This document shows, in pieces, positions 3,001 through 49,700 of a stretch of 64,000 bases of DNA. The stretch covers positions 38,504,001-38,568,000 of the forward strand of contig NC_087251.1 in the NCBI RefSeq assembly GCF_037042905.1. Direction: 5' to 3'. The notes below the pieces were generated by a model. It was not told the origin of the DNA, searched no databases, and saw only the letters and a program-made list of their open reading frames with translations. Source of the stretch: Lytechinus pictus (lineage: Eukaryota). The first letter of the stretch is position 1; each line of letters begins with the position of its first letter. The translations under genes and the position numbers were made by a program.

Positions 3001-4734
3001 ATTGACCGATGTTGAGACACTTAAGTTTAAGTATCTAAAGTTGAGTCTTGACTTTTGAATTCTACCTTCACTTTTAATCTTCATTTTATTTCTTATTTGT
3101 ATTTGAAGGAATATAAGATCACATATGTTTTTTTAATGATATATTTTTGTTGTCTTCTCCTCCCAGTTCACTTGTACTAGATTATTTTGTGTGATTTCAT
3201 GAATATATACCATATTTCATTTCCCTGAAAGATGTAGTAGATTACAAACTTTCAATTGATGTACCAAATGTACTCTTTGTCTCTTTTAATATATTATTTT
3301 TTTAAATTCTCTTTGCCTCATATGTGATTCCATTTGCTAGTTCTAAAACATTACATGATTGTGTACCAAGTAATTTTCAATGACGGAAAAAAATATCATG
3401 GTACACAACTTGTATTACATTTTGTACTGTGAAAGAAAACGAACCAACCTTCCGACTGTTGTGTACAATTTTGTGAAGTTGAACTCTCAAGCCATGATCC
3501 ATCTCACTGAATCTTTTGTCGAGTGTAGATGTGTTCAATTCGGATTTTAAGATGGACTATTCTGTATTTCAATGTGGTCAAATTTGTGTTCATACTTGTA
3601 AAATAAAAGCATATACCATATGTTAATATACATGTAAACAAGGGCAAAAGGTGATGCTATATACGTGTATGTGAAAAAATATGGATTACATATTTTTAAA
3701 AATCACATGAAAAAATGTTGAATTTTTAAAGTAAATTATCTTGCTTTCTGTCATGTCGTGTGAATTCATAAGATTGACATTGTTTTATCTCTGTGCTTTG
3801 CGGGCAAAAGTACTATTTTTTCTTTTGTAGAATTCATGTTTATGTTACATTTTTAACTTTAGAATAAAATGTATAGTGAATGTTACCTCAATTTTAACTA
3901 GAATAAGAATGAAAATGAAAAAAAAAATAAGGATTGCACAAAACAGAATTTGATTGCTGTTTGTATGAATGTTATATTTTCATTTGTTCTAATGTCAGTT
4001 CATTCTTTCAGAATGGACTAGCTATTTGTGTCAATTCAAACAATATTTATATCATGGTCATTATTACTTATTCATAGCCACGTAAAAAGTACCATTATTT
4101 CAGAGAATGCTATCAATTTTTCATTCTATTCCTGTCCAACGCGATTGAGCGTGATAAAATACATTGATGATAAAAACTTGAGGAATAAACTTGTTCGTAT
4201 AGTCCGAGATAGATGTGAATAGATTTTACATTTGGATCCCACACAGGTACTGATTTAGAAATTACATACTAGGAATATTAATAATTATTGGTTAAATATG
4301 TGAGCAGTCCCACCTCATGTATTGCAAAATGAAAGCAGATTTCTGGATGCTTTACATTGTATACATTTAAATTCAAAATGCTTGTAGATTCTATAATCTC
4401 TTTGTTCAATATATTTTGATTATGTACAGAGCGTGCTGCATGAATATTCTCCCCTCCTCCCTTATAATGTGTAATTATTGTACAGTGCTTGGAAGTGGTT
4501 CTATAGTTCAGGTATTTTTACTTCAGCTTTTTTCTGTTGCATGATTGATAAAAAAAGGTGTTGTTACTTTTCATTTTTGTTGTCGTCTATCCTTCTTGTT
4601 CTTGCTTAAAGTATATATCCTTGTAAATAATGAGTTTGTATACATGCACATGAAATGGTTGAAATAAACATGTGAGTATGAAATGAAGGCTATACTCTGT
4701 GGTACTCATTCATTTTCAAATGTACGTTGATAAG

Positions 4735-28700: not shown

Positions 28701-31700
28701 TCCATGTAGGAATCAGAGAAATTCAAGAGTTTGAGAAGTTGCTCCCCGGACAAGGATCTAAGGAGAGGTGGGAATGAAAATGCTGTTGCATAATTATTTT
28801 TTATCGTTCTTTTTTTTAATATTAAAGTTAACAATGATTTCATGAGAAAGTCTCTAAAACTAAAGTTAACTGTCACTCTATCATTAAAAAAAGACCTGAC
28901 TTTGTGCTTGATTTCATGATTGATTTGCTAATTTCTCAGTAATTACACAATTTCTTCCTTTAGTTCCGGATTCCTTTGGCACATATTTTATATTTATACA
29001 TACAGATACTTAATTGATCATTTTATTAGATTCTGTACAAAGTAATTTTGAAGTTGTTACCACAACTTGCATTTATGTGTAAGTTCATTTTTGTCTCACC
29101 TGCATAGCAGAGTGAGACTATAGGCGACGCTTTTCCGGCGGCGGCGTCAACATCAAATCTTAACCAAAGGTTAAGTTTTTGAAATGACAGCATAACTTAG
29201 AAATTATATGGACCTAGTTCATGAAACTTGGCCATAAGGGTTATCAAGTATCACTGAAGTATCACTGAACATCCTGGCTGAGTTTCAGTTCACATTACCA
29301 AGGTCAAAGGTCATTTAGGGTCATTGAACTTAGACCATGTTGGGGGAATCAATATTGAAATCTTAACCAAGGTTAAGTTTTTGAAACATCGTCATAACTT
29401 AAAAAGTATTTGGACTTAGTTCGTGAAACTTGGACATCAGGGTGATTGTGTATCCCTGAAGATCCTGCCTGAGTTTAAAGTCACATGACCAAGGTCAAAG
29501 GCCACTAAAGGTCAACAAACTTTGACCGTGGTTGGGGTATTTGTGGAATTGTCATCATAACTTTAAAAGTTTATAGCATAGTTCATGAAACTTGGACATA
29601 AGAATATACTGTGTGTGTTCCAGGTCATGTGACCAAGATCAAAGGTCATTTAAGGTCAATGAACTTTGGCTGTGTTGGTGGTATTTGTTTAATTGGCATC
29701 AGAACTTAGAAAGTTTATGGATCTACACATGTAGTTCATGAAACATAGATATAAGGGTAATCAAGTATAAATTATTGTTTTGCACACGTCTTAGGTCACA
29801 TGATCATAGTCAAAGTTCATGTTGGGTCAATGGACATAGTATTTTATTATCATACACCTGTATGAGTGTTTTCTTTTGTAAATAATTATTCAATAGCTGT
29901 TTTCAAAGTCAGCACTGCTGCTATATTGAATCACGTAATGCAGGCGAGACAGCCAGAGGCGTTCCACTTGTTTCAGAAAAAAAATTAGTGCAAATATGTG
30001 TATTATACTACGTCACAGGGGAAAAACATACACAAGCATTCAGTGCTTCAAAGAGCCCTTGAAAAAAAAAAAAAAAAGAGCTCGGAAAATCTTCATTCAT
30101 TACCATGTTAAAGTTTATCCAATATAGCAGATTCAGGCAGTAGGTTATGAAAAGTAGCCCCTGAAAATAAAAAATGATTTTTTTTTTACCTGCTACATCA
30201 CGATGCAAGGTGGGCACAGGGCACTGTGACATGGTATGCAATTCATGCATAAGATTGTTCTGCGCTGCTTCTCAAACCAGTTCAAACTGGTTCACATAAA
30301 TGTTGCCCACTGCTGCATTTACACACAGAGTCAACGGGAAATCTCAAAAGAGATAGATTACGGTATCATAATTGCTCACTGTGGAATCAGAGATTGCAAA
30401 ATATAGAAAATCGCAGATTGAAGAAAACACCTTCCTTAGATAATGATTGGTTATATTTGAATGTGAATCCATAAAATATTGACCTAACTTTGTGTGCATT
30501 CATTTCATGAGATTATTGGAGCTTCTTACATGGGATTATTTTTAATTGTGGAAGAAGCCTTAGAAAATTAACTTACATGTAAGTAAAAGAATATAAAGCT
30601 GTTTTTTAATGAACCAATTTAGTAATGATTCTTGAAGGAGCTTTTATTTTGATTACACAGAGACTATTGTTCTCTTCTTAACTAGTCTGCTTTACTTCTG
30701 TTTGTATTTGTGGAATAAGTTCAGTTAAAAAGTTTATACTGACAGTTATGTTGAAATGAATATTTGGTTGTTGAAGACTTGCGACATTAGCTTAGGTTGA
30801 CTATCTTAATAGGTATAAACATACAAAAGATAAAATGGTAGACCAGATTATTTAATTTAACTGTGGACTTTGGTATTCAATTCAATTTAAATGAACATTT
30901 ATTTTCTTCCATTTCAAACCATTTTTCATAAACATTGATTCATACAAAAATCAAATTGTTATGAGGAATATAAATATGTACATCTTTGGTTCAAAGAAGA
31001 AGGCGTATACCCTAAAAGCCGAGGCTTGTGGCGGGATACGCCTATAGACAAAAATACAATACAAAAAACAATACAAAGGAAAGGCAGAGAAAAGAAGAGA
31101 AGGAAAGGGAACGAGAGAGGGAGACGTGAGCGGGGAGGCGGACATGAATTACTTTATAAAATAGAATGCTCAACAAATGTATCAGTGGGGGCAAAATATA
31201 AATGTCGCAACAACAATTGTCCATGGTTCATGTTAACTTAAAGTCAAAAGGAAATGTAAGGTGGAAAATATTCATATATAAAATGACAGAAGCAGTTTTT
31301 TCATTTTATACTTAAAGCTAGTTGACGATAGAGATTGTTTTATGTAATCCGGAATTTCGTTCCATATTTTGGGGCCAGTATAACAAATGTTGTGTTGGAA
31401 GATTATTTTTTTATGTTTGGGAATGAATTGATTATTTGAGCGGGTATCAAAATAATGTATGTTGGAAACATGCGTAAACAAATCACAAAATTTATGGGGA
31501 ATTTGATGATTGAAACACCTGTAGAGAAAATGACATTGTTGAAGTTTATTGATGTCGTCTAATTTCAACAATGTTAGGGAATGAAACAAATTTTAGTATT
31601 TGCTAGTGGTATATTGTCGTCTGGAGAAATAATATGCACAATTTTATTTTGAAGGGAACATAATTTCTTAAGATGGGTTTGGTATGTGTTCGCCCAGACC

Positions 31701-34700
31701 AAATTACAGTAATAAAAATATGGCAAGATTAAAGAGCAATATAATGTACGCAATACAGTTTTAGACAAGTAAAAACTTAGGCGATGTATTCCGATATTTT
31801 TTGCAACTTTGTTCTCAATTTCATTCATGTGATGTATCCATGTTAAATTACTATCAATGATAACGCCAAGAAACCTAGTATTTTCAACTCCGGGAATAAT
31901 TTGGTTGTTAAGTTTTACCACTACATGATTAAGATCAATACGCCTTGTGGAGTTACGGAATATAGTGTAATTGCATTTTTTATAGTTAATGGTAAGCTTG
32001 TTTGCACAAAACCATTTACAAACATTTGTTATTTCAGTATTTACAGTTTCACACAAGTGATAAAGATTTCTATCAGAATAAACAATATTGGTATCGTCGG
32101 CGTACATGATAAAGGAAAGGAGATTTGACGAACGATAAATGTCATTAATAAATAAAATAAACAAAAGTGGGCCAAGTAATGACCCTTGTGGTACTCCACA
32201 TTCAATTGTCCTAAATTCAGACTGAACGGAGTTATAAACGGTGCATTGTTTACGATTTGAGAGGTAACTAGAAAAAAGGTCGAGGGCAGTTCCACGAATA
32301 CCATAGTTAGTTTTGATAAAAGTATATTATGATTAATTGTGTCAAACGCCTTTGACAAGTCAATAAATATCCCTATTGCGAATGAGTCGTGCTCAAAGGA
32401 GTCAATTATAGTATTTGTTGATTCTAAAAGAGCTAGTTCTGTTGAGTGGTCACTACGAAATCCGTATTGAGATTCAAAAAGACACTTGTTATTTTCAAGA
32501 AAATTATAGGCCCTTTTATAAATAATCTTTTCCAATATTTTAGAAAATATAGAAAGCACTGATATGGGTCTATAATTACCGATCTGCTCTGTGTCACCAG
32601 TTTTAAAAATTGGAGAAACTCGCGCAATTTTCATTTTATCAGGAAATGCCCCAGAGGTTAACGATAGATTGAATGTATGACATAAAGGTTCGCTGATTAA
32701 TTCGATTACAAGTTTAACAATCTTAGGTGAGCATTCATCAAGACCCGGGGCTTTATTGTTATCGAAACGCATGACAATGTTACATATTTCACGTTGGCTT
32801 ACCGGATTTAAAAACAAAGATTTTGAATTTGGTTCAGATAGATAAGTTCTGAAATCTGTATTATTTTGAGGAGTGATATTAGCTAACTATTGTCAAACCA
32901 ATCCTTTTTTTTTCAAGATATTACTTGTTATTCAGAGATCAAAGTGTGATACAGGTATCTTCCATCATTGATAATGATAATGTTAGGTCCATTTACGTTG
33001 GTGCTCAAACGTTAATGAAGCCCACCAAAAAATGAATATATTTAAAGTATTCAAGTTTTGTCATGTTTTAGATATTTAATTGTGAAATTAGGTAGTAAAA
33101 TATTACATTCAATAAAGTTTGTTTCTCTGGGCTTGCTGAACATCGTAGTATTGTCTATATTCAACACTCTGTGTATGAAGGATGAGCACAACTTTATATA
33201 GTGCAGCTATTATATTCCTAACTCTACTATTAAAGCTGAAAACATTGTATCATATTATTGACGAGGATATTTTCCTAATTCTACATATAAAGTGAGGTAT
33301 TTTGTGCTGCATGCTGAGTAAATGAAAACCATAATGATAGTGCTGCAAGTCAGGCGCCATGTTCGGGTTCGGTTCGGTTCGGCAAGGTTCGGCAGAAAAT
33401 TGCCGAACATTGGTTCGGTTCGGGGTTCGGTAATGATAGACTGATAAAGTTATAGTTCATTCAGGTATACGTAGCGTACCGGTAGACAAGTTGTACTTGA
33501 TTGACTGCATGTGCTCGCGTGTCCTCTGTCACATCAAACCATTTTATCTCTATCTTGTTGACATGAAACTATGAAAGTTATAGCGCTCAACGAATCAACT
33601 GTTATCTCGAATTTGATTATCTGATGACAGATTTATTGGGTAACTCACAGTTCTAAAATGGCGACTCTTCCTCGTCGTCCATACCTGGACCACACTTTGG
33701 ATACTTGCCAAATTAACTACGCTCGCACTCGTACCAGTACCGGCTAGGCCAGCGCATGCAGTCCCCTTGTAGCGGGACTCTGAGCTCATGAATATTTATA
33801 TTTACAGTCCGGCCAAACGTGATTGGCCATTGAATCACATACGAGGCGGCCAGCGCCAGTGCACTGAACTGCAGGCATAGTAGGGCCAGGGGCGTGTCGA
33901 AGAAAGCGTGCTTATGTAATGCGCCTTTCGCTAATTGGCTCGATGGGTGAACTAAACCACCAATCGCATGTCGCTGATTGTCGCATTGGTACATACAGCC
34001 ACGTGCTTTGTCTGCCCGCGAAACTCAGCTCACCGATTGAAGAGCAATTGCCGAGATTTCTATGATTTTATTGGTCAGATTTCATTCGACCATGAACATA
34101 CAGACCAAGTGGGATGCAAAGTTTTACGACTGTAATGGGACAGGGGGAGTAGAGTGATCATCGAATTGTTTATGGTTAATTTGAGAAGTTGATAAGAAAG
34201 GGAAAAAAGTAAAGATTGGGGGTCATTTTCCCCCAAGAGATGACTGTTTCCGCTTTATCTTCATTCAACTTTTCAACGAGGGGAAGGGGATCTTGCTATA
34301 TGCTATACCGTAATCATTCATGAGTGTTTGATTTTTATTTTCATCTGATTGTTAATAATAAAAAAGATAACTTCACCTCATCTCATTTCTATATTATTTG
34401 TTTTGCGTCTCTCCTTTCCATCTCTAACAGTCACTCACTTTATTTCCCACTTTCACTGGATCTCTCGTTTTCAAAACTCTTTACTTCTCTCTAAAATCAT
34501 GAAAACTAGACAGTAGCGAGCCGACACCTCAATAATAATGTTAATCACCTCAATCAGATCTTTATTCTTCGCCGCAACAATAAACGAGTTATGATCTTAA
34601 TCACGTATCGTAATTCGTAATATTAATGGTACTTCATCTTTCACTTTCAGTTTATTGAGCTCGTTCATTCAAAATACTTTGAAGATTTTCAAACAAGAAT

Positions 34701-37700: not shown

Positions 37701-40700
37701 AAAGCTAAGTGTATGATTGTATAGTTGGTTTGTGTGCTTGATTGCATATAATAATCATTACAATCAATCACAAAAATCAGGCCTTTAATCAATCACTGAC
37801 CACGCTCTGAATGTGTATGTATCGCTAATTATGAATTAGCTTCTTTTGGCAAATGACAAAACCTTGAAAGGAAGGTCCTTATGGATTATATTTTTAGATG
37901 TCATTTGCCTGAAGGAGCCGATCGATAATTGGCAAACGTTGCAAAAATGGGTTGTTATTCCCAGTTTTTCAATTGAAAGGTTTTCATTTTGAACACAACT
38001 GGATGAATGAAATGAATTTGAATAAGTTTATCCTGTTAACTTCTTTCTGCAGCGTTGTCCATTGGAGCAGCTGATTCTGCAGGTGAAGGTCTTGGACCTT
38101 GGAGAACCCAAGGCTATCCTGGCCTTGGCCTTGGAACCACCTAACCTGGACAACATTGAGAAGACTATTCTACTCCTCAAAGAGGTAAGATCATATTACT
38201 ACAGTCTGCAATAGCAGTGTTTTGTTTTGTGTGTTTTTAGAAAGAAATCCAAGGTAACAATGGTCATTTTAAACCTTAAGGTATATCTGTCTTGTAATAG
38301 ATATAATACTGTTTGAGGGATCAACTTAAAACTTGGCTCATGTATAAGTTGTAAATGTCCTTTGTCTGGCAGTGGCGGAGGCATGAATTTTCAACTGCAT
38401 GCAGTCAAGAATCTCACCAGCTAAAAGAATTGTTGCAATCTATCAAGAATTGTACACTTACCCTTCGCTGTCAGTAACTGTTCTATCTCTGTGACTTACA
38501 GGTTGGAGGTCTCACCACAGTACGGTCCAATGTTGCAAATCCTCATGATGGTGATCTGACATTTGTGGGGAGCATCCTTGCATCCCTTCCTGTAGACATA
38601 CGCATTGGCAAACTCCTGGTTCTGGGTCATGTCTTTGGTTGTCTCAAAGAATGTCTGGTTATAGGTAAGTAGAGTCAAGGCTTAAGGTACTGTACAGTAT
38701 GTAGTAAATGCGTGGAACCCAAAATTAAAGCAGAGCTTGGAGAAAAATTAGGTTTCCAATGGGAGAAACAAACGTGGTTACAGTAAGCGATATAACGTAA
38801 TACAGAATAGATATAATTTGATTGCATTTTTATTTTTTGTGGTTATTTGTTGATTCCTTACAGGGGCTGGTCTGTCTCTTAAAAGCTTCTTCTCACAGCC
38901 ATACAAGAGGGCTCTTGAAGCATACAAGTGAGTATGAAAGATGTGTGAAACCTGGGTCTTGAGCCTGTTTCATTATAACTCTGCCGTTATAGTATTTACC
39001 ATCAAAACCTTGAGTGTGATTGGCTGCTGAGCTGTGTTATGATGGTAAAGTTACAATAGTTTATGAAATGGTCCTTATGCCTCATAGAGCTTTTAAGCAA
39101 GGCAAATTCCTGTCTGCTGTTAAGAGCTACTAAAATCCTGTAATCCAATTGGTCAGGAGCAAATATAATATTTATTATTGATATCATTTTTTTTAAACAA
39201 CGAACTAGCTCTTAGAAAATTCTACATTCATTAAAAAAAGAGAAATAAGTGTTGCAGCTCTTCTATCTGATTTAAAGTGACAATTAAGAATTAATGATTT
39301 CGTTTGGAATGATTTTTGTCTGGAGTTGCATTAAAAATTTCCACGAATTAACCAACATAATATTAACAATAACGTCTCATGGAGACACAATTATAATCAA
39401 ATATAAATGTCATGTAATAAAAAGTTCTAACCATACATTATGTGAAAGCTTTCATGAATACCATTATGTCATGCTACCACATATCTTACATGTATCTTAT
39501 GGATCAGTGAATAAATATCCAGACTTAGGCAAGGTGTTAATCTATATTTGCCACTGTCCACCCTGGTATAGTAAATGGGTACCCTTTAGGAAGGAACTCC
39601 TAGAATGCTAGAGCGCCTCCAGCTTGCCATGCTTAAGCTTGGGTAATGTTGTATTTGGGCTATATTAATCTTGCCTATTGTTATTATTATTGTTAATTAA
39701 AACCTGTAAACAAGTTTAATCTAACCACTGTATTGCCTGCTTAGCTTTCCAACTTATTGCTTTAACTAAATGCATGTGACAAGCTTAGATCAGGGCCCCT
39801 TCTCACAAAGAGTTGTTATTGATCGATTCCATCCCATCTTTGGTAACCCATCAATGTCATAATTCATCAGATAGCAAATGAACATTATGTCTCTTTAGAA
39901 AATAATGCATAGTTGTGATTCATCTGATCAATCCCAACTCTTTGTAAGACAGACCCTGGATATCATTTCTTGTCTCTGTTTCAGGTCCAAGTTGAAGTGG
40001 GATTCAGGAAGTTTCAGTGATCCCATTGCTATCCTAAATGCATACAGAGAGTGGGAAAGATGTAAAGACAATGGATTCTTTGCTCGTAGTAGAAGGGTAA
40101 GGAATATTATTTATATTGTGAATTGAATCGTTTAATATATAAATAATTATTATCTTTGTCTTCGCTTGATACATTATTAGATAACCTTGTCACGTGGGAA
40201 GTGACTTTTTTTTAATTATTTACTTACTGCTGCTTGACACCAAATAAAGAATACGTAGAACTGATGAATACAGTTATTAAAAAGATTTAATCATATCTCT
40301 TCAATCTTTCTGATGTTCTCTTTTGATGGTTTTACAATAATTTGTACATGAAAATATACACAGATATAACAAAATACAACTTAACTTAACGGTAATCGTT
40401 GACTCTAGCCCCTATCATCTCATCTGGCCTGACATGCCCCACTCGGCCCTGGTGGTCGGTCCAGTTCCTGGCCTCCGCAGCTAGCGATGTCTCTTCCACT
40501 CGGCCTCGGCCTCCGCAGACTGTTGCCCCTCGATGAGTAGCCCTCAGATCAAAGATGTGGCTTCAACGAATTAGTGGACGAGATCGAGCCCCCAATGATG
40601 ACATGAGTTTTGACGAAACATGTCGGTGGAGAACCGGTGGCAGCTGGGGTCGTTATCTCGTCACCGACGTAGTCCCTTCAGTTATAACTTAGACTGCCTA

Positions 40701-43700
40701 TACGAACGTCTGTAGTCTATTCTAGCTTAGGTGGTTCTCCCTGAATTACTTAAATTAACCTCCTAATATACCCTACCGTTACTAGGACTAACTGTAAAAC
40801 TTCTATAACGTAATTCAAAGAATTTCAATAGCAGATGAGTGCATAAAACACATTCTTAATAACAAAAGACTTCCTGTGCATCTATACATCTAAATTCTTC
40901 AATGCTAAAGCACAGTATTAACTATTTATGACACATGTATGAAGATGCTTAGCTAGTACGAACTATTTCTAACACTTTGAACAAAAATATGGCATCCACC
41001 TGATCTTGTACTCTAGGGGGGGGGGGGGGTATCAAACGTTTCCAACGCTTGCTTTTGAAACATTCAGAACATATGTACATATACAATTGTCTATAGGCCT
41101 ACCATAAGCTGGACCAAGTAAATATTTTAAACACATGTCTGAACTCAACTGAAATACTCTATAATTAAATTTCTTTCCTGACAATATCCCCCACCTTAAG
41201 ATGAAATTAAGGGAACCTGAATTACATCCGTTAAAGAAATTTACTTTCAAAGCATTGACTAAGCTTTCATAACACTATTTCCAAAAACACAAGTAATATC
41301 GATTTCTATACCAGCATAACATATATGCCAAAACTAAAAGCTTTTTAGTTTTGTAAAAGATCTTCACTTTTCAGTTTAAAATATCAATTTAAATTCTGCA
41401 AAGCGCATTAAAATTTACAATCCTTTCTTACTTTGCTTTGTCAAATAACTGTTTAAATTCAGTAATCTTTCCGAACACAACTTCTTTTAAAACAAAGTGC
41501 AGTGTTTGTTACCACTTTCATAGCATTGTATATTTCAATAAATGAAAGTACTTCATAATCCTTAAAACATTGCTTTATGTATGTAAAATCAGTATTCTTC
41601 TCAAAATCAGCATGTTTTTTTTTAAACAATTAAGTAAATTAAAATTATTGCAATGCCATTCAATTTTCAAAAATTCATATTTTTGTGTACATAAATTGCT
41701 TCAAAAATGGTTACAAAGTTTCAACCGTTTCATGTTTAACATATTTAAATTCAATGTTATGTTCTTGCTTGATTTTTTTTTTTTTTAATAATCGATTAAA
41801 GAAACAAATTTTATATTTCAAACACAGTTACTGATTTGCAATATTTTCATTAAACGAATTTGAATAGCACTTGCACGAATACAGCATATTCTAACACATA
41901 AATATGTATTTTGTATAATGAAAGTGCATGTTATAAACTACTATAAGTCTAAGACCATTTTTTTTTCAAAAACTTCTTACGAACAAGATAATTCTGTGTG
42001 TTTTTTTTTAATGTCATTGCATACAAATTTCATATAAAGAGAAAAGAAATGTTTTACAATCTTATTTCCTAAACTAAAGGACCTATAACTTTTCCCTATT
42101 CTAACTAAATTTACAGGTAAGCCCTACTAACTTAAATCCCTATTCTAATTTCTAATCGCGAATTGTAAGACTTGCGATCATGATTGGCTTCGAAGATCCA
42201 AGGATATCTGGAATAAATGAAAAAAGATCATGAATAATCTGCGAAATACATATGCATAAAACATAGAATTGCGAAAAAAATGGCCCTATGGCTTCTTTTT
42301 TTTTTATATGACATGAATATAGAAAATATTATGATTAATGAGCGCACAGATATTTCATAAAACGTTTATTTTATGAAAGCGTGTAGTGTATAATATTGTG
42401 TATGAGTGTAAAATGTTTAAATATATATATTCTGAACCATTTAGCAATATTCAACATCCTAGTGAACTAAAGCTCTCTCACACCAGCTCATTTGATATAG
42501 ACCCGGGATCAAACACGGTTATCTTGTTAAGGTGCCGGACATCTATCCAAAACCAGTCTGAACTATCCGGTTTCCTAACCAATACAATCGGATGCGCATA
42601 AGACGGATCCGAAGGCTCGACAACCCTTGACTTCAGCATTGACTCAACCTCGACAACTTGGGGTACTCTAGTGAAAGGGGGAGAACGAACAGGTCCATCA
42701 CTTGTCAAATTAATTTTACACTTAGCCACTGAAGTTCGCTTAGGAACGATCGTGAATACATCCTGGTATTCGCATGACAATTCTCGAACCTCATCCTTAG
42801 AATCATGAACATGATTCACAAAGCCCCTCTGAAATGAGCCTGGCATATCATGAGTATCTTTGATACACTCATCCGTCATATCTTTCTCATCTCCAACCTC
42901 ATTGCAAGTATCAGCATCAACACTTGGATTTCTCTCATCCCTTTCTTGACAATGACTCATCTTACTCCACAAAGCCTGAAGTGACAAATCGTCCTTTTGC
43001 TTTCGCAAAAAGTCTTCCGATTTAACTTTCACTCCCGAGCCTTTCACTCTCGAATCCTGTTTAGGTTTATATTTATTTTCCTGTTGTGCCCTAGATTCAA
43101 CAGCCATAGCCTCATCCACGCATGAAGATACATCATCCAAAATCTCAACTTTCGGAATCAACTCACTCACTTCGGAAACCCGAACATTATCTTCCGAACT
43201 AGACACAACTTCCGAACTTTGCACATCAGATTCGGATACCCGATCATCGTTCGATCCAGACACAACTTCCGAACTTTGCACATGAACAACTTCGGAAACT
43301 CGAATATCTTCCGAACTATCAACATCAACTTTGGACATGCGATCATGTATATTCTCTTTACGATCTATACTAGGCACCCATTGCAAGTCAGGATCCTTGG
43401 GCTCACGTGCCCCCTTCACATCATTACCAATAATGACGTCACACAAACAATTAGGCACACACAATGCATTGACCTCTCCAATGAAATAGGGACTATCAAG
43501 CATGACCTTTGCCCTAGGAAAACGCCTAAGAGTGCCATCTATCAGCTTAACCAACTGAATCACTCCCGTGAACTGATTGTCTAATACTAAACTCGTTCTC
43601 ACTATACTCGTGCTACTCCCAGAATCCTTCAGCACGGAAACGGGCTTGTTCATGGGTAACAACCTACCCGAAACAACCGGCATATCAGTCATCGCACCAA

Positions 43701-46700
43701 CTTTTTCATACGCCATACCAAGCGTTTCAACACTTGCATCACTCTCTGATGGAACTTCACCTATGAGTATACAACCGGCTAAACTTTCTACGAATCTAGT
43801 GGATTTCAACTGACTACTTGCCACATCGTCTGAACGCAAAGTTCCTATCGGTATAAAATTTTCATTCGAATGTAAACTTGACTTGTTTGACCTAACGCTA
43901 TTAATCGGAGTGTCCTCCACACTCATAGCCTGAGCTGAATGAACTATGGGCTTCATTGGACAATTCCGTTTCAAATGATTCGGACTACCACACATGTAAC
44001 ACCCATACATCGTACCGCCACTATCATAATTAGGTTTTGTGTTATATTCCGTTGAATTAGCATACTTAGGTTTCCTATCTGCCTGTGGACCTAATACTGA
44101 TTTAGGGTTTTGGATTTGACTTAATCTCTGTTTCTGATTTTGATTCTGTCTTTGGTTTTGATTCTTAGGATTAAATTTATCATTCCTATGACCAATGAAA
44201 GTATGCAATCCATGCGCATGCACATATATCTCAGCACATTCAACCATCTCATGCAACTTCCCACAATTCCTCTCCTTCAAGAATCCAACTACCTCTCTGG
44301 GACAACAATCCAAAAATTGCTCCCTAACAACCAAATCGACCAGGGAATCGTAATCACTAACACCAGACAAATCCAACCACTTATCAAAGTACCCTTTCAT
44401 CCTAACAGCAAACTGTTTTGGGCGCTCTTCCCTATTTGGTCTTACTGACCTGAATTTCTTCCTATAACCATCATCAGTAAGATGGAAGTATTCCATTAGC
44501 TCACGCTTTACCCTATCATAATCGGTGCGATCAGTGCTATTCATTCTATTCACTACATCCAGTGATTTTCCAGTCAGATTCGAAATTAAATGCAAGCATC
44601 TAACTTGTTTTGGTATGTTCTGACTATCCATTAACAGTTCAAACTTTGTTATGTAAGAATCAAAACTGTCAGTTGATTCATCAAACTTTCCTACCTTCAA
44701 CTTAATCCCACTGAACTCAAGAGGGCGTTCCTCTAATTTTGCCTGTTCAATTTTAATTTGGGCCAAGCGCAATTCGTGAGCTTCCTTTTCTCGTTCTCGC
44801 TCACGTTCGTGAGCTTCCTTTTCTCGTTCTCGCTCACGTTCGTAAGCTTCTTTTTCACGTTCCATAGACTCTGTGACAAAACTACTTAATTCGCCACCAC
44901 TAAGTCCTATCTCTCTACCTAGAGTAGAAAACTCCTTCATTTTCTCTATACTACTAGCCATATTGACTAAATTCCAAAACCTAACCAGACTTGAATTGTG
45001 AAAGGCGTCCGCAAAAACAAAGCAACAATAGCTTTAACCTGGCAACCAAATGCCAAACCCTAGTACAAGCACCGCACTAGAAATCGTATCTCCACGAGCA
45101 TACAATTATTCAACCATGCGAACAACAAAGCCCACTTCACACATACAAATTCACAGTCTGTAACATTCAATACTTGCTACCATGCCAACGAGTTACCCGT
45201 AAGAATAGACAGTAATTATGTGAATTAAGAACAAACAGTTCTTCCCGACATATCCTTTATCCTAACGACCAACAGCCCACTATATACCATAGCATTAAAA
45301 CAGGGTCTGCCTTCCCTAAATGCTGTTTACCCGGCCGAAAAAAGGTATGAAGTATATTTTCCTACAGAAAATTTCCCACAATAATTCACCGTACTATCAA
45401 AATGTAAATTCAAGCATAGCAAGTATGATTAGTACCAAGGCTTCAATGCACACCTTGGGGAGAAATATTTTAAGAGCTATTACCAATAGACCATCAATAA
45501 AGTATCCATTTGGAAAGATGACTACAGATTAATTTCTTTCCTAAATAATTTTGAATTATTTCAAGCAGCAGTGGTCTCGGTGGGACCTCCAAATTGTCAC
45601 GTGGGAAGTGACTTTTTTTTAATTATTTACTTACTGCTGCTTGACACCAAATAAAGAATACGTAGAACTGATGAATACAGTTATTAAAAAGATTTAATCA
45701 TATCTCTTCAATCTTTCTGATGTTCTCTTTTGATGGTTTTACAATAATTTGTACATGAAAATATACACAGATATAACAAAATACAACTTAACTTAACGGT
45801 AATCGTTGACTCTAGCCCCTATCATCTCATCTGGCCTGACATGCCCCACTCGGCCCTGGTGGTCGGTCCAGTTCCTGGCCTCCGCAGCTAGCGATGTCTC
45901 TTCCACTCGGCCTCGGCCTCCGCAGACTGTTGCCCCTCGATGAGTAGCCCTCAGATCAAAGATGTGGCTTCAACGAATTAGTGGACGAGATCGAGCCCCC
46001 AATGATGACATGAGTTTTGACGAAACATGTCGGTGGAGAACCGGTGGCAGCTGGGGTCGTTATCTCGTCACCGACGTAGTCCCTTCAGTTATAACTTAGA
46101 CTGCCTATACGAACGTCTGTAGTCTATTCTAGCTTAGGTGGTTCTCCCTGAATTACTTAAATTAACCTCCTAATATACCCTACCGTTACTAGGACTAACT
46201 GTAAAACTTCTATAACGTAATTCAAAGAATTTCAATAGCAGATGAGTGCATAAAACACATTCTTAATAACAAAAGACTTCCTGTGCATCTATACATCTAA
46301 ATTCTTCAATGCTAAAGCACAGTATTAACTATTTATGACACATGTATGAAGATGCTTAGCTAGTACGAACTATTTCTAACACTTTGAACAAAAATATGGC
46401 ATCCACCTGATCTTGTACTCTAGGGGGGGGGGGGGTATCAAACGTTTCCAACGCTTGCTTTTGAAACATTCAGAACATATGTACATATACAATTGTCTAT
46501 AGGCCTACCATAAGCTGGACCAAGTAAATATTTTAAACACATGTCTGAACTCAACTGAAATACTCTATAATTAAATTTCTTTCCTGACAAACCTATTCAT
46601 CAGGATTTCATATTATCATCTATATAGAGTGTTTTAGCAATGCATTAAAAATGCATGTTTTGGTCTGCATTAATTGCCTGTGCAGTATCAGAGCGTATCC

Positions 46701-49700
46701 CTAAAAAGGACCGAAATCCGAAGAATATCCCATAGGCTCCTGTACTAAATTTGCTATTGAATATGAGAGCATATTCAGCAGTAGGCTTATAGTGTGAATG
46801 TGTGAAATATACAATGCGTACAACGATGAAAGCAATGCGATACGTAGCAATAGTACAACGACGCTCAATGACGTCATAATGGACTACATGCAAGTCGCAT
46901 ATCAACGACCAAATTTGACCTTATGAAGTGATGATGCCATTATGTGATAAGTGAAATGACTTCAGTCAAATTTCTTCCTCCATTAATTGGTAGGGGTGGG
47001 GTAGATGGTAATCATGATATTGGATGGCTTTATTTAATGGAATACCAGAAATATTCCACTCGTTAAAGCCAATATTCCACAAATCGCAGCCATCCAATAT
47101 AACATAAGTATTCATGTCTTGAGCAGTTGAATGTTAATCAGATCTTTTGAATCCTCCATATAAATGTACTGATCTTCCATATTCTTGAGAACTCCCAGAG
47201 AGTGAAATATGAACTTATATTTGGTCGCCAAAAACAACAGCCATTATATGAATACTGAAGTTCTGGGCCCCATCTTACAAAGAGTTGCGATCGATCTGAT
47301 CAATCTCAAGTATATGGAAATCCATACATACCATAATTATTTTTACAAAAAATATGCATGATGTCCTTTGTAAACAGAGAGCATCACACTGAATGTTCAA
47401 GAAAACAATGAATGTATGATTATACGTCACATCTAGAAAATATTTTGAACAAACATGCATTTTAGATGTTGACGTTGCTGGCTCTCCATTGTTGCGATTG
47501 ATCAGATTAATCGCAACTCTTTGTGAGACGGGGCCCCTATGATGTATATATAAAATTATTATTACTACAGATATAACTGCTTTCGGACACAGAGTGGTTA
47601 TGTTGTCTTTGATGCTATTATATCTGTATTTTATGTTTTTTGTTTTAGGCTGAAAGAGAATGGGCAGATGAAAGAATGATACAACTCAACCCATTGAGAG
47701 AGGTAAGGAAAGGAACCATTTCTTACCAGTTGACTGGATAAAAAACCCAGGGACTTGTTGTGTGAAGCAAAGCTTAAAGATAAATGCCAGTTGTGGTAAC
47801 AATCTCAAAATTACTTTTTACAGAATCCAATATAATGACCACCCAAGTGCCTGTTTGTATGAATAAAAAATATGTGCCAAAGGATTCTGGAAGAAATTGT
47901 GTAATTGCTGAGAAATAAGCGGGGATTTTGGCACTTGACTACTTGAACACATATTGAGACCGTTGTATTTGTCTTACGTTACAAATTATTTATTTATATA
48001 ATTTGAACATTTGTTGGTATCTTTCCTACTCTGGTATTGTGATTTTATAATTGATGTAACACATCATTTGATTTATCAGGTGGCCAAGCTTGTAGCTGAG
48101 CTTGAAGATCGGTTGTCCAATGCCAACATCCGTCTCCCGAAGGGTAACCCACGCAATCAACAGAGACAAGATCCCACACATAATCTACTCATCCTCAAGG
48201 TCAGTGTCTTTCATGACCTTTGACATTTCTTGACATTTGATATCTCTAATGACCTTTGACATCTCTTGACATTTGATATCTCTAATGACCTTGGACATTT
48301 CTTGACATTTGATATCTCTAATGACCTTTGACATTTGATATCTCTAATGACCTTTGACATCTCTTGACATTTGATATCTCTAATGACCTTTGACATTTCT
48401 TGACATTTGATATCTCTAATGACCTTTGACATTTGATATCTCTAATGACCTTTGACATCTCTTGACATTTGATATCTCTAATGACCTTTGACATTTCTTG
48501 ACATTTGATATCTCTAAATGACCTTTGACATCTCTTGACATTTGATATCTCTAATGACCTTTGACATTTCTTGACTTTTGATATCTCTAATGACCTTTGA
48601 CATCTCTTGACATTTGATATCTCTAATGACCTTTGACATTTCTTGACCTTTGACATCTCTTAACATTTGATATCTCTAATGACCTTTGATATTTCTTGAC
48701 TTTTGATATCTCTAATGACCTTTGACATTTCTTGACACTTGATATCTCTAATGACCTTTGACATCTCTTGGGGTATAACATGGAGAGATGGAGGTAGACT
48801 TGCAAAAGTTGACCTGCCATAAGTATAACATGAACCCAAGTGGAAGCAATTTTTTTAGACCAGGGTAGCGTTTCATGAAAAGACTTTACCCGACATGTCC
48901 CATTTTATCTGACAGTTACCATGGTAACTGTGCTTCTCAGCCAATCAAAATCAAGGAAAGAAGAAAAATGTTGATGAAACGCTCCCCTGATTATTCAAAA
49001 CATTTGTCATGTACTTCAGTCAGATATCTCCCAAGTCAAACAGGCATCTGTGTACTTTGTGATATAACATTTAGCTTAAACAGGTCACCAGTTGTTCGTA
49101 AACTCATTGTGACTTACGAACGGCTTTATGAAACTCCCACTGTGTTTCATGAAATACTAATGAGTCATACTTTCAAATGATACAGTTGTGCTCAAAAGTT
49201 AATGAACCCCACCACAAAATGCACTTTGCCATGCTGAGTGTTGAATGTAGAAAACAACACTACAATGTTTGACGAGCCCAGAGAGACAAACTAAATTGTA
49301 TGTAATATTTTGTCACCCAACCTCACAATTGAATATCTAAAACATGGCAGAACACTTTGAATACGTTCATTTTCTAGTGGGGTTCACTAACTTTTGAGGA
49401 CCACTGTATATGTTTCCTAATAATTAATTGATAATTAATTTTCTCACAAATGATCACGAAATTTTGATTTCCCTTTCAAGGTCAGCCTCAAGGTCACATT
49501 TTGCCAGCCTTAGGCACTGACCTTGGGCTATATCATGTGTACAACGTGTATGGGAGAAGGTTTTCTCCAGTGGCCCCAAGACTTGGAAGTACCTGCCTCG
49601 ACGACTTCCCTGATTGATACACCCCTTATATGATAGTTATATATTGATTGCTGCTTTGGTTTTCTTTGAATGACAGGTTGTGCTAGCTGGGGCATTCTAT

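Follow-up and report, generated by a model that had tools for sequence, protein, structure and literature searches.

The window analysed here, a 64,000-nt stretch of Lytechinus pictus DNA (contig NC_087251.1, positions 38,504,001 to 38,568,000), contains a long terminal repeat (LTR) retrotransposon copy of 6402 nt on its minus strand (40188–46589). The element encodes a capsid and a protease, and lacks integrase and a functional reverse transcriptase (RT). We conclude, with a probability of about 0.7, that it is a very recent insertion of a multi-copy, Gmr1-like deletion family whose capsid and protease are under purifying selection, and that it probably moved via particles shared with full-length partners supplying integrase, RT and RNase H. 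This reading is drawn from sequence comparison. It follows up an earlier note on the same DNA, which had proposed a recently mobile family that makes its own capsid and protease and borrows RT and integrase in trans.

All the structural hallmarks of an LTR retrotransposon are present, much as the earlier note had listed them. The 5′ LTR (45595–46589, 995 nt) and the 3′ LTR (40188–41183, 996 nt), both on the minus strand and with TG...CA ends, align with 0 substitutions, and their sole difference is one extra G in a poly-G run. Copies of the target-site duplication (TSD) AACCT lie at 40183–40187 on the left and 46590–46594 on the right. The polypurine tract (PPT; 41187–41197, minus strand) stands 3 nt before the 3′ LTR, and its end is identical across all size classes. 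The primer-binding site (PBS; 45575–45591, minus strand) comprises 17 nt complementary to the 3′ end of host tRNA-Gln plus CCA. With a looser tRNA pattern the primer-site pattern is present at 26 places in the genome (a stricter first pattern gave none), and ARAGORN called tRNA-Gln(CTG) at both primer-matching loci checked. These loci, L047 and L048, hold a tandem array of tRNA-Gln(CTG) genes, and the gene 3′ end matches the primer site of the element.

Inside the element, a single uninterrupted open reading frame (ORF) of 827 aa runs from 44961 to 42478 on the minus strand and comprises Gag, protease and remnants. Its predicted domains were recovered with differing strength: a SCAN-like capsid C-terminal domain (44215–44466; Pfam SCAN at aa 166–249, E 5e-10, above cut-off), a CCHC zinc knuckle (43957–44004; Pfam zf-CCHC at aa 320–335, E 0.002, below cut-off) and a retroviral-type aspartic protease (43375–43686, with DSG at 43618–43626). 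The protease has only a weak Pfam match (RVP_2, E 0.025); in the Atlas it lies nearest to clusters of retroviral aspartyl proteases (0.95). Pfam found no RVT_1, rve or RNase H match in the ORF, which bears out the proposed absence of integrase and functional RT.

Beyond the protease, the frame continues through integrase-flanking remnants (42772–42999) into a degenerate N-terminal RT stub (42481–42771) that stops before the catalytic aspartates and has no Pfam match. The earlier note had seen a single in-frame join after QKDDLSLQALW. The join is indeed in frame, but it consists of two deletions, with junctions near 42957 (51 nt) and 42921 (1116 nt), that excise integrase and keep its flanks. 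A spliced-RNA origin of the integrase deletion was rejected: the junction has a short TTG microhomology, and the flanks examined contain no AG acceptor. At the second set of junctions (42455–42485), a stop codon and a ~30-nt RT remnant come first, and all remaining RT and RNase H sequence (about 160 + 870 nt) is then missing. The remainder is a non-coding 3′ region (41184–42477, 1294 nt), partly of helper type by recombination. The AT-rich tail of about 1.3 kb described earlier is real, and it is the ordinary 3′ region of the family, 1365 nt long in full-length copies; that homology rules out decayed pol.

The same deletions recur across the genome. Eleven loci match the entire 4.4-kb interior of the window copy, a lower bound given that the best 40 of 110 candidates were scored. 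All 11 carry identical integrase and RT/RNase H deletions: 51 nt (42 in some pairwise alignments) and 1116 or 1119 nt are removed in frame, taking out integrase, and RT and RNase H are lost past the first RT motifs. Identity to the window copy among the copies that share these deletions is 90.9–99.7%, which means that the deletions predate the insertions, as had been suspected. A lineage marker, a 22-mer just upstream of the RT junction and not the junction itself, is found at 20 loci. Decay of a single copy is ruled out by the deletions that the 11 copies share, and nine of these copies each have a different 5-bp TSD, with 0–4 substitutions between their paired LTRs.

Spread at the DNA level was considered as a source of these copies. 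Distinct TSDs, and LTR pairs that match within copies whose LTRs are only 90–98% identical to the window LTR, refute duplication of this kind. Likewise, an assembly collapse of pol is ruled out by contigs of independent runs that bridge the deletion junctions (962 nt in run X1, 1029 nt in X2 and 866 nt in X6) and by the lack of any N letter in the window. Segmental duplication, gene conversion or collapse, taken as a group, has a next to negligible probability, the points in its favour being that two of the 11 copies have mismatched LTRs and no TSD, and that gene conversion between chromosomal copies can also produce mosaics such as those described below.

Shorter contigs, 93–94% alike, bridge both deletion junctions in run X9 (organism B), placing the deleted lineage in a differently labelled organism as well; the organism-C run yielded no junction-spanning contig. 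Some junction-bridging runs also carry a spliced host exon. Reading about 6 in 100 of each of two raw RNA runs of 2026 (tissue unrecorded) gave almost no reads on the element interior. Among the runs listed, none was recorded as an RNA holder.

The earlier note had predicted an autonomous partner that shares the LTR ends and PBS, and such a partner exists at six full-length loci. These hold the missing integrase–RT stretch at 97–100% identity, with the next best at 68% (best 40 of 55 candidates scored). Three of the six have an uninterrupted 1528-aa ORF, and the other three are broken in RT or RNase H. The partner has the layout Gag-PR-INT-RT-RH, with Pfam domains in the order SCAN, integrase (Integrase_H2C2 665–721, rve 741–836), RT (RVT_1 1155–1313) and RNase H (1378–1505). 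RVT_1 is present and RVT_2 absent, marking the RT and RNase H as Ty3/gypsy type and not copia, and the best match in the Protein Data Bank (PDB) is Ty3-G Gag-Pol (E 2e-112). Partner and deleted class have identical LTR ends, tRNA-Gln PBS and PPT and hold the 1.3-kb 3′ region in common; across 200-nt windows, the partner is about 77–100% identical to the window element. The partner copies are themselves very young, with 0–4 substitutions between paired LTRs.

By its integrase upstream of RT, its Ty3-type RT/RNase H and its SCAN-like capsid, the family is Gmr1-like Ty3/gypsy, an assignment made from these sequence features with named Gmr1 references compared by description. In descriptions of the Gmr1 clade, integrase precedes RT, the RT is Ty3-like and Gag is SCAN-like (PMC8220671, PMC3424704, PMC4131045). 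The partner shares all three, in line with the type proposed at the outset; the window element differs from the clade as described there in having neither integrase nor RT.

Deleted and full-length copies have exchanged sequence. Painting 343 diagnostic columns revealed sharp mosaics, each with its own TSD and matched LTRs. In L036–L038, helper-type sequence extends from the start up to nt 3819 or 3926 and gives way to deleted-type sequence as far as 5400, after which helper-type sequence resumes. L008 has the same 3′ crossover and a different switch, at 2034–2052, and in L003 the start of gag is helper-type. In the window copy, tracts of helper type lie within the 3′ region, and the protease and most of the capsid are of the deleted-lineage type, not the current-helper type. 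Template switching between co-packaged RNAs, a process reviewed in PMC6894440, would be the simplest cause of the mosaics, although conversion between chromosomal copies, followed by transposition, may be an alternative. Part of the conservation of the capsid gene stems from this recombination with the helper, which the earlier note had not foreseen.

L036–L038 form a recombinant class of their own, with Gag, protease and the whole integrase and no RT, represented by three insertions and two different crossovers.

Selection differs along the ORF. Among seven of the 11 deleted copies (two broken copies and two recent mosaics were left out), omega (dN/dS) is 0.24 in the capsid (p 8e-11 against 1) and 0.22 in the protease (p 0.004), so gag-pro is not neutral; the RT stub (0.73, p 0.23) and the spacer (0.67) are not different from 1. 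Along the branch that leads to the window copy, capsid omega is 0.23, and the protease accumulated 10 synonymous substitutions and 5 replacements. Frame-preserving indels make up 25 of 27 across the whole ORF and 14 of the 16 that lie beyond the protease, compared with 29 of 119 in the untranslated regions, and the two that break the frame are each private to one copy. Nine of the 11 copies have an ORF without interruption; in the other two, the break is private and downstream of the protease. After the protease about six nonsense changes are expected on the seven-copy tree, and one is seen in the 11 copies. Capsid and protease are therefore conserved in sequence, and the reading frame persists even in stretches where the sequence drifts, in line with the earlier idea of an old deletion in an ORF that is still maintained.

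A frame held open in a tail whose amino acids drift, with so few nonsense changes, also suits a pure parasite: an element mobilised in trans, its protein irrelevant, its open frame protecting the RNA (for example from nonsense-mediated decay) and its gag conserved via replacement by the helper. Helper-type gag in L003, L008 and a sister family speaks for such replacement. We nevertheless regard this as unlikely, because the protease and most of the capsid of the window copy belong to the deleted lineage, because omega on the window branch is 0.13 in the protease and 0.41 in the stub despite synonymous divergence of 0.16 and 0.30, respectively, and because all 11 copies are free of any break before the end of the protease.

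The sister family emerged from an LTR-end search (113 matches). Its coding sequence is about 62–73% identical, its LTR ends and PBS are the same, and it includes a full-length copy with a 1500-aa ORF (L060). It also has its own Gag-protease class (L051–L055, L075, L076), with other deletions and a frame that ends in an integrase remnant, without RT; the zinc-finger part of this remnant still scores in Pfam. The Gag-protease-only class is of independent origin in this family. Five deleted copies examined have distinct TSDs and LTR pairs with 0–5 substitutions, and all 9 of their 9 ORF indels preserve the frame, against 7 of 40 in the comparison set. None of 10 loci with short Gag frames from more distant families is of the Gag-protease-only class (five are full-length with a break, one has an internal integrase deletion, one is interrupted, one is a gag fragment and two share an RT-truncated form), so the class is seen only in the two sister families.

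Other truncated forms occur among these relatives. One young sister-family copy, L058, has the opposite deletion, with 1780 nt of gag-protease gone and the integrase core to RNase H retained. L056, L057 and L059 have related LTRs (85–94%), the same PBS and no long ORF. In a more distant family, L067 and L068 break off at a shared position late in RT and have no RNase H, and a third locus has an equal frame length.

Deleted-lineage loci outnumber full-length loci by 20 to 6, and in the sister family seven Gag-protease frames stand against one open full-length frame. Such an excess could arise if the element interfered with its helper, the truncated Gag-protease co-assembling with helper Gag and lowering helper success, for its own gain or that of the host. 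Copy-number control by Ty1 p22 offers a parallel. The element keeps the whole capsid and the protease motif, not a dominant-negative piece, and the helper copies are very young, with nearly matched LTR pairs, which makes interference improbable; it is compatible in part with the best explanation.

That explanation holds that the element is a semi-autonomous partner: it would produce its own capsid and protease and likely obtain RT and integrase from a helper through co-packaging. RNA of the deleted class would be transcribed from the same LTR promoter as that of the helper and translated into Gag-protease with a tail free of sequence constraint. It would then be packaged together with helper RNA and helper polyprotein, RT switching between the two RNAs would yield mosaics, and helper integrase would insert the cDNA of the deleted class. 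More speculatively, its own Gag may act on its own RNA during translation and may add capsid to a helper system that has Gag and Pol in one frame. We tentatively offer a wider reading: single-frame Gmr1-like elements, which make Gag and Pol one to one, might time and again give rise to Gag-protease partners that provide extra capsid and stay compatible with them through recombination, twice independently here. Selection on translating the RNA to its end, and not on the sequence of the tail, would then make this invertebrate element a natural example of translation-coupled packaging.

Several observations weigh against a semi-autonomous, protein-dependent element. Two of the 11 deleted copies, besides lacking a TSD, have LTR pairs with 22–31 substitutions. 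In the capsid tree an older full-length copy, L040, is placed inside the group of deleted copies, and the sister-family capsid region is 95–100% identical to that of its helper in five of five copies examined. Because recombination imports helper gag, the low capsid omega partly reflects helper history. The nucleocapsid linker is neutral among deleted copies (omega 1.06), and protease omega in the sister family, at 0.5–0.6, is not significant. The omega values come from the reduced set of seven copies, the protease test depends on a small number of changes (tree length 0.16 per codon), the tree model assumes an absence of recombination that is violated here, and some in-frame gaps may predate the deletions. 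Finally, the junction-bridging runs are RNA by guess only, and their contigs may derive from intronic pre-mRNA or DNA.

TRIM and LARD elements have, by definition, no coding capacity, and an 827-aa ORF under constraint places the window element outside them. Its kind, a helper-dependent Gag-protease element, is already described (wheat Sabrina_SA, PMC9744471; mouse IAP 1-delta-1, PMC6466679). The RLG_Sabrina_SA Gypsy elements of wheat and barley, termed “semi-autonomous” with RLG_Wilma as partner, are described by Wicker et al. as having one intact GAG-protease ORF and no RT or integrase, and are proposed to be cross-mobilised by the full-length family while adding Gag (PMC9744471). Both traits of this kind were found here, namely an intact Gag-protease ORF without RT or integrase in many separate insertions and an autonomous partner with the same PBS and LTR termini. 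RLG_Sabrina_SA differs in its plant lineage and, in that account, in the minimal sequence homology of its partner (PMC9744471), whereas our partner is about 77–100% identical and recombines with the deleted class, and the deletions can be mapped.

Other reported systems share fewer traits. Wheat Fatima famc1.4/1.5 (PMC6097303) and RLG_Quinta with RLG_Cereba (PMC11302176) are described as Gag(-protease) subfamilies beside a partner that provides RT and integrase and has the same PBS and LTR ends. They number hundreds of copies in those reports, against about 20 here, and RLG_Quinta is without protease and centromere-targeted. Mouse IAP 1-delta-1 is likewise an animal LTR element in which an in-frame internal deletion creates a Gag-Pol fusion ORF and helper proteins are needed; it is reported to outrun full-length copies in new insertions, with a protein that acts in cis (PMC6466679). 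In contrast to our element, it is an endogenous retrovirus whose deletion takes part of gag and pol and does not spare Gag and protease. Plant TR-GAG elements are described with LTRs, PBS, PPT, a 5-bp TSD and one Gag ORF without polyprotein enzymes, at <4 kb, with no partner found for TR-GAG1 (PMC4350172). The window element differs at 6.4 kb (6402 nt), with a partner and with an ORF that includes protease and remnants.

In the open-access literature (Repbase lay outside the scope) we found no Gag-protease-only Gmr1-like family. Why some helper-dependent LTR elements keep Gag has so far been argued mostly from the structure of plant copies and from one mouse case. The present genome, with few, very young copies, brings together the partner, the deletion steps, the crossovers and an independent repeat in a sister family, and the need for the protein can thereby be separated from the need for translation.

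The insertion lies antisense in an intron (GT...AG; 40097–47648, plus strand) of a Spindle-E/TDRD9-like piRNA helicase gene that spans about 17250–62800 of the window on the plus strand, and begins 91 nt into that intron. Three exon frames of the gene have Spindle-E as their best PDB match (E 3e-25, 0.006 and 0.08). Contigs of three runs join the exons that flank the element-bearing intron, in animals that may or may not carry the insertion. That the element landed in a Spindle-E-like gene is probably due to chance.

Elsewhere in the window, broken frames judged by eye to be non-LTR reverse-transcriptase-like lie on the minus strand at 31574–32886, and a minisatellite with 17-, 19- and 36-nt units occupies 48178–48804, directly after an exon-like frame. 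Short inverted-repeat elements are found in both flanking introns (39793–39950 and 47265–47536), and the piece at 39908–39950 draws many reads from elsewhere.

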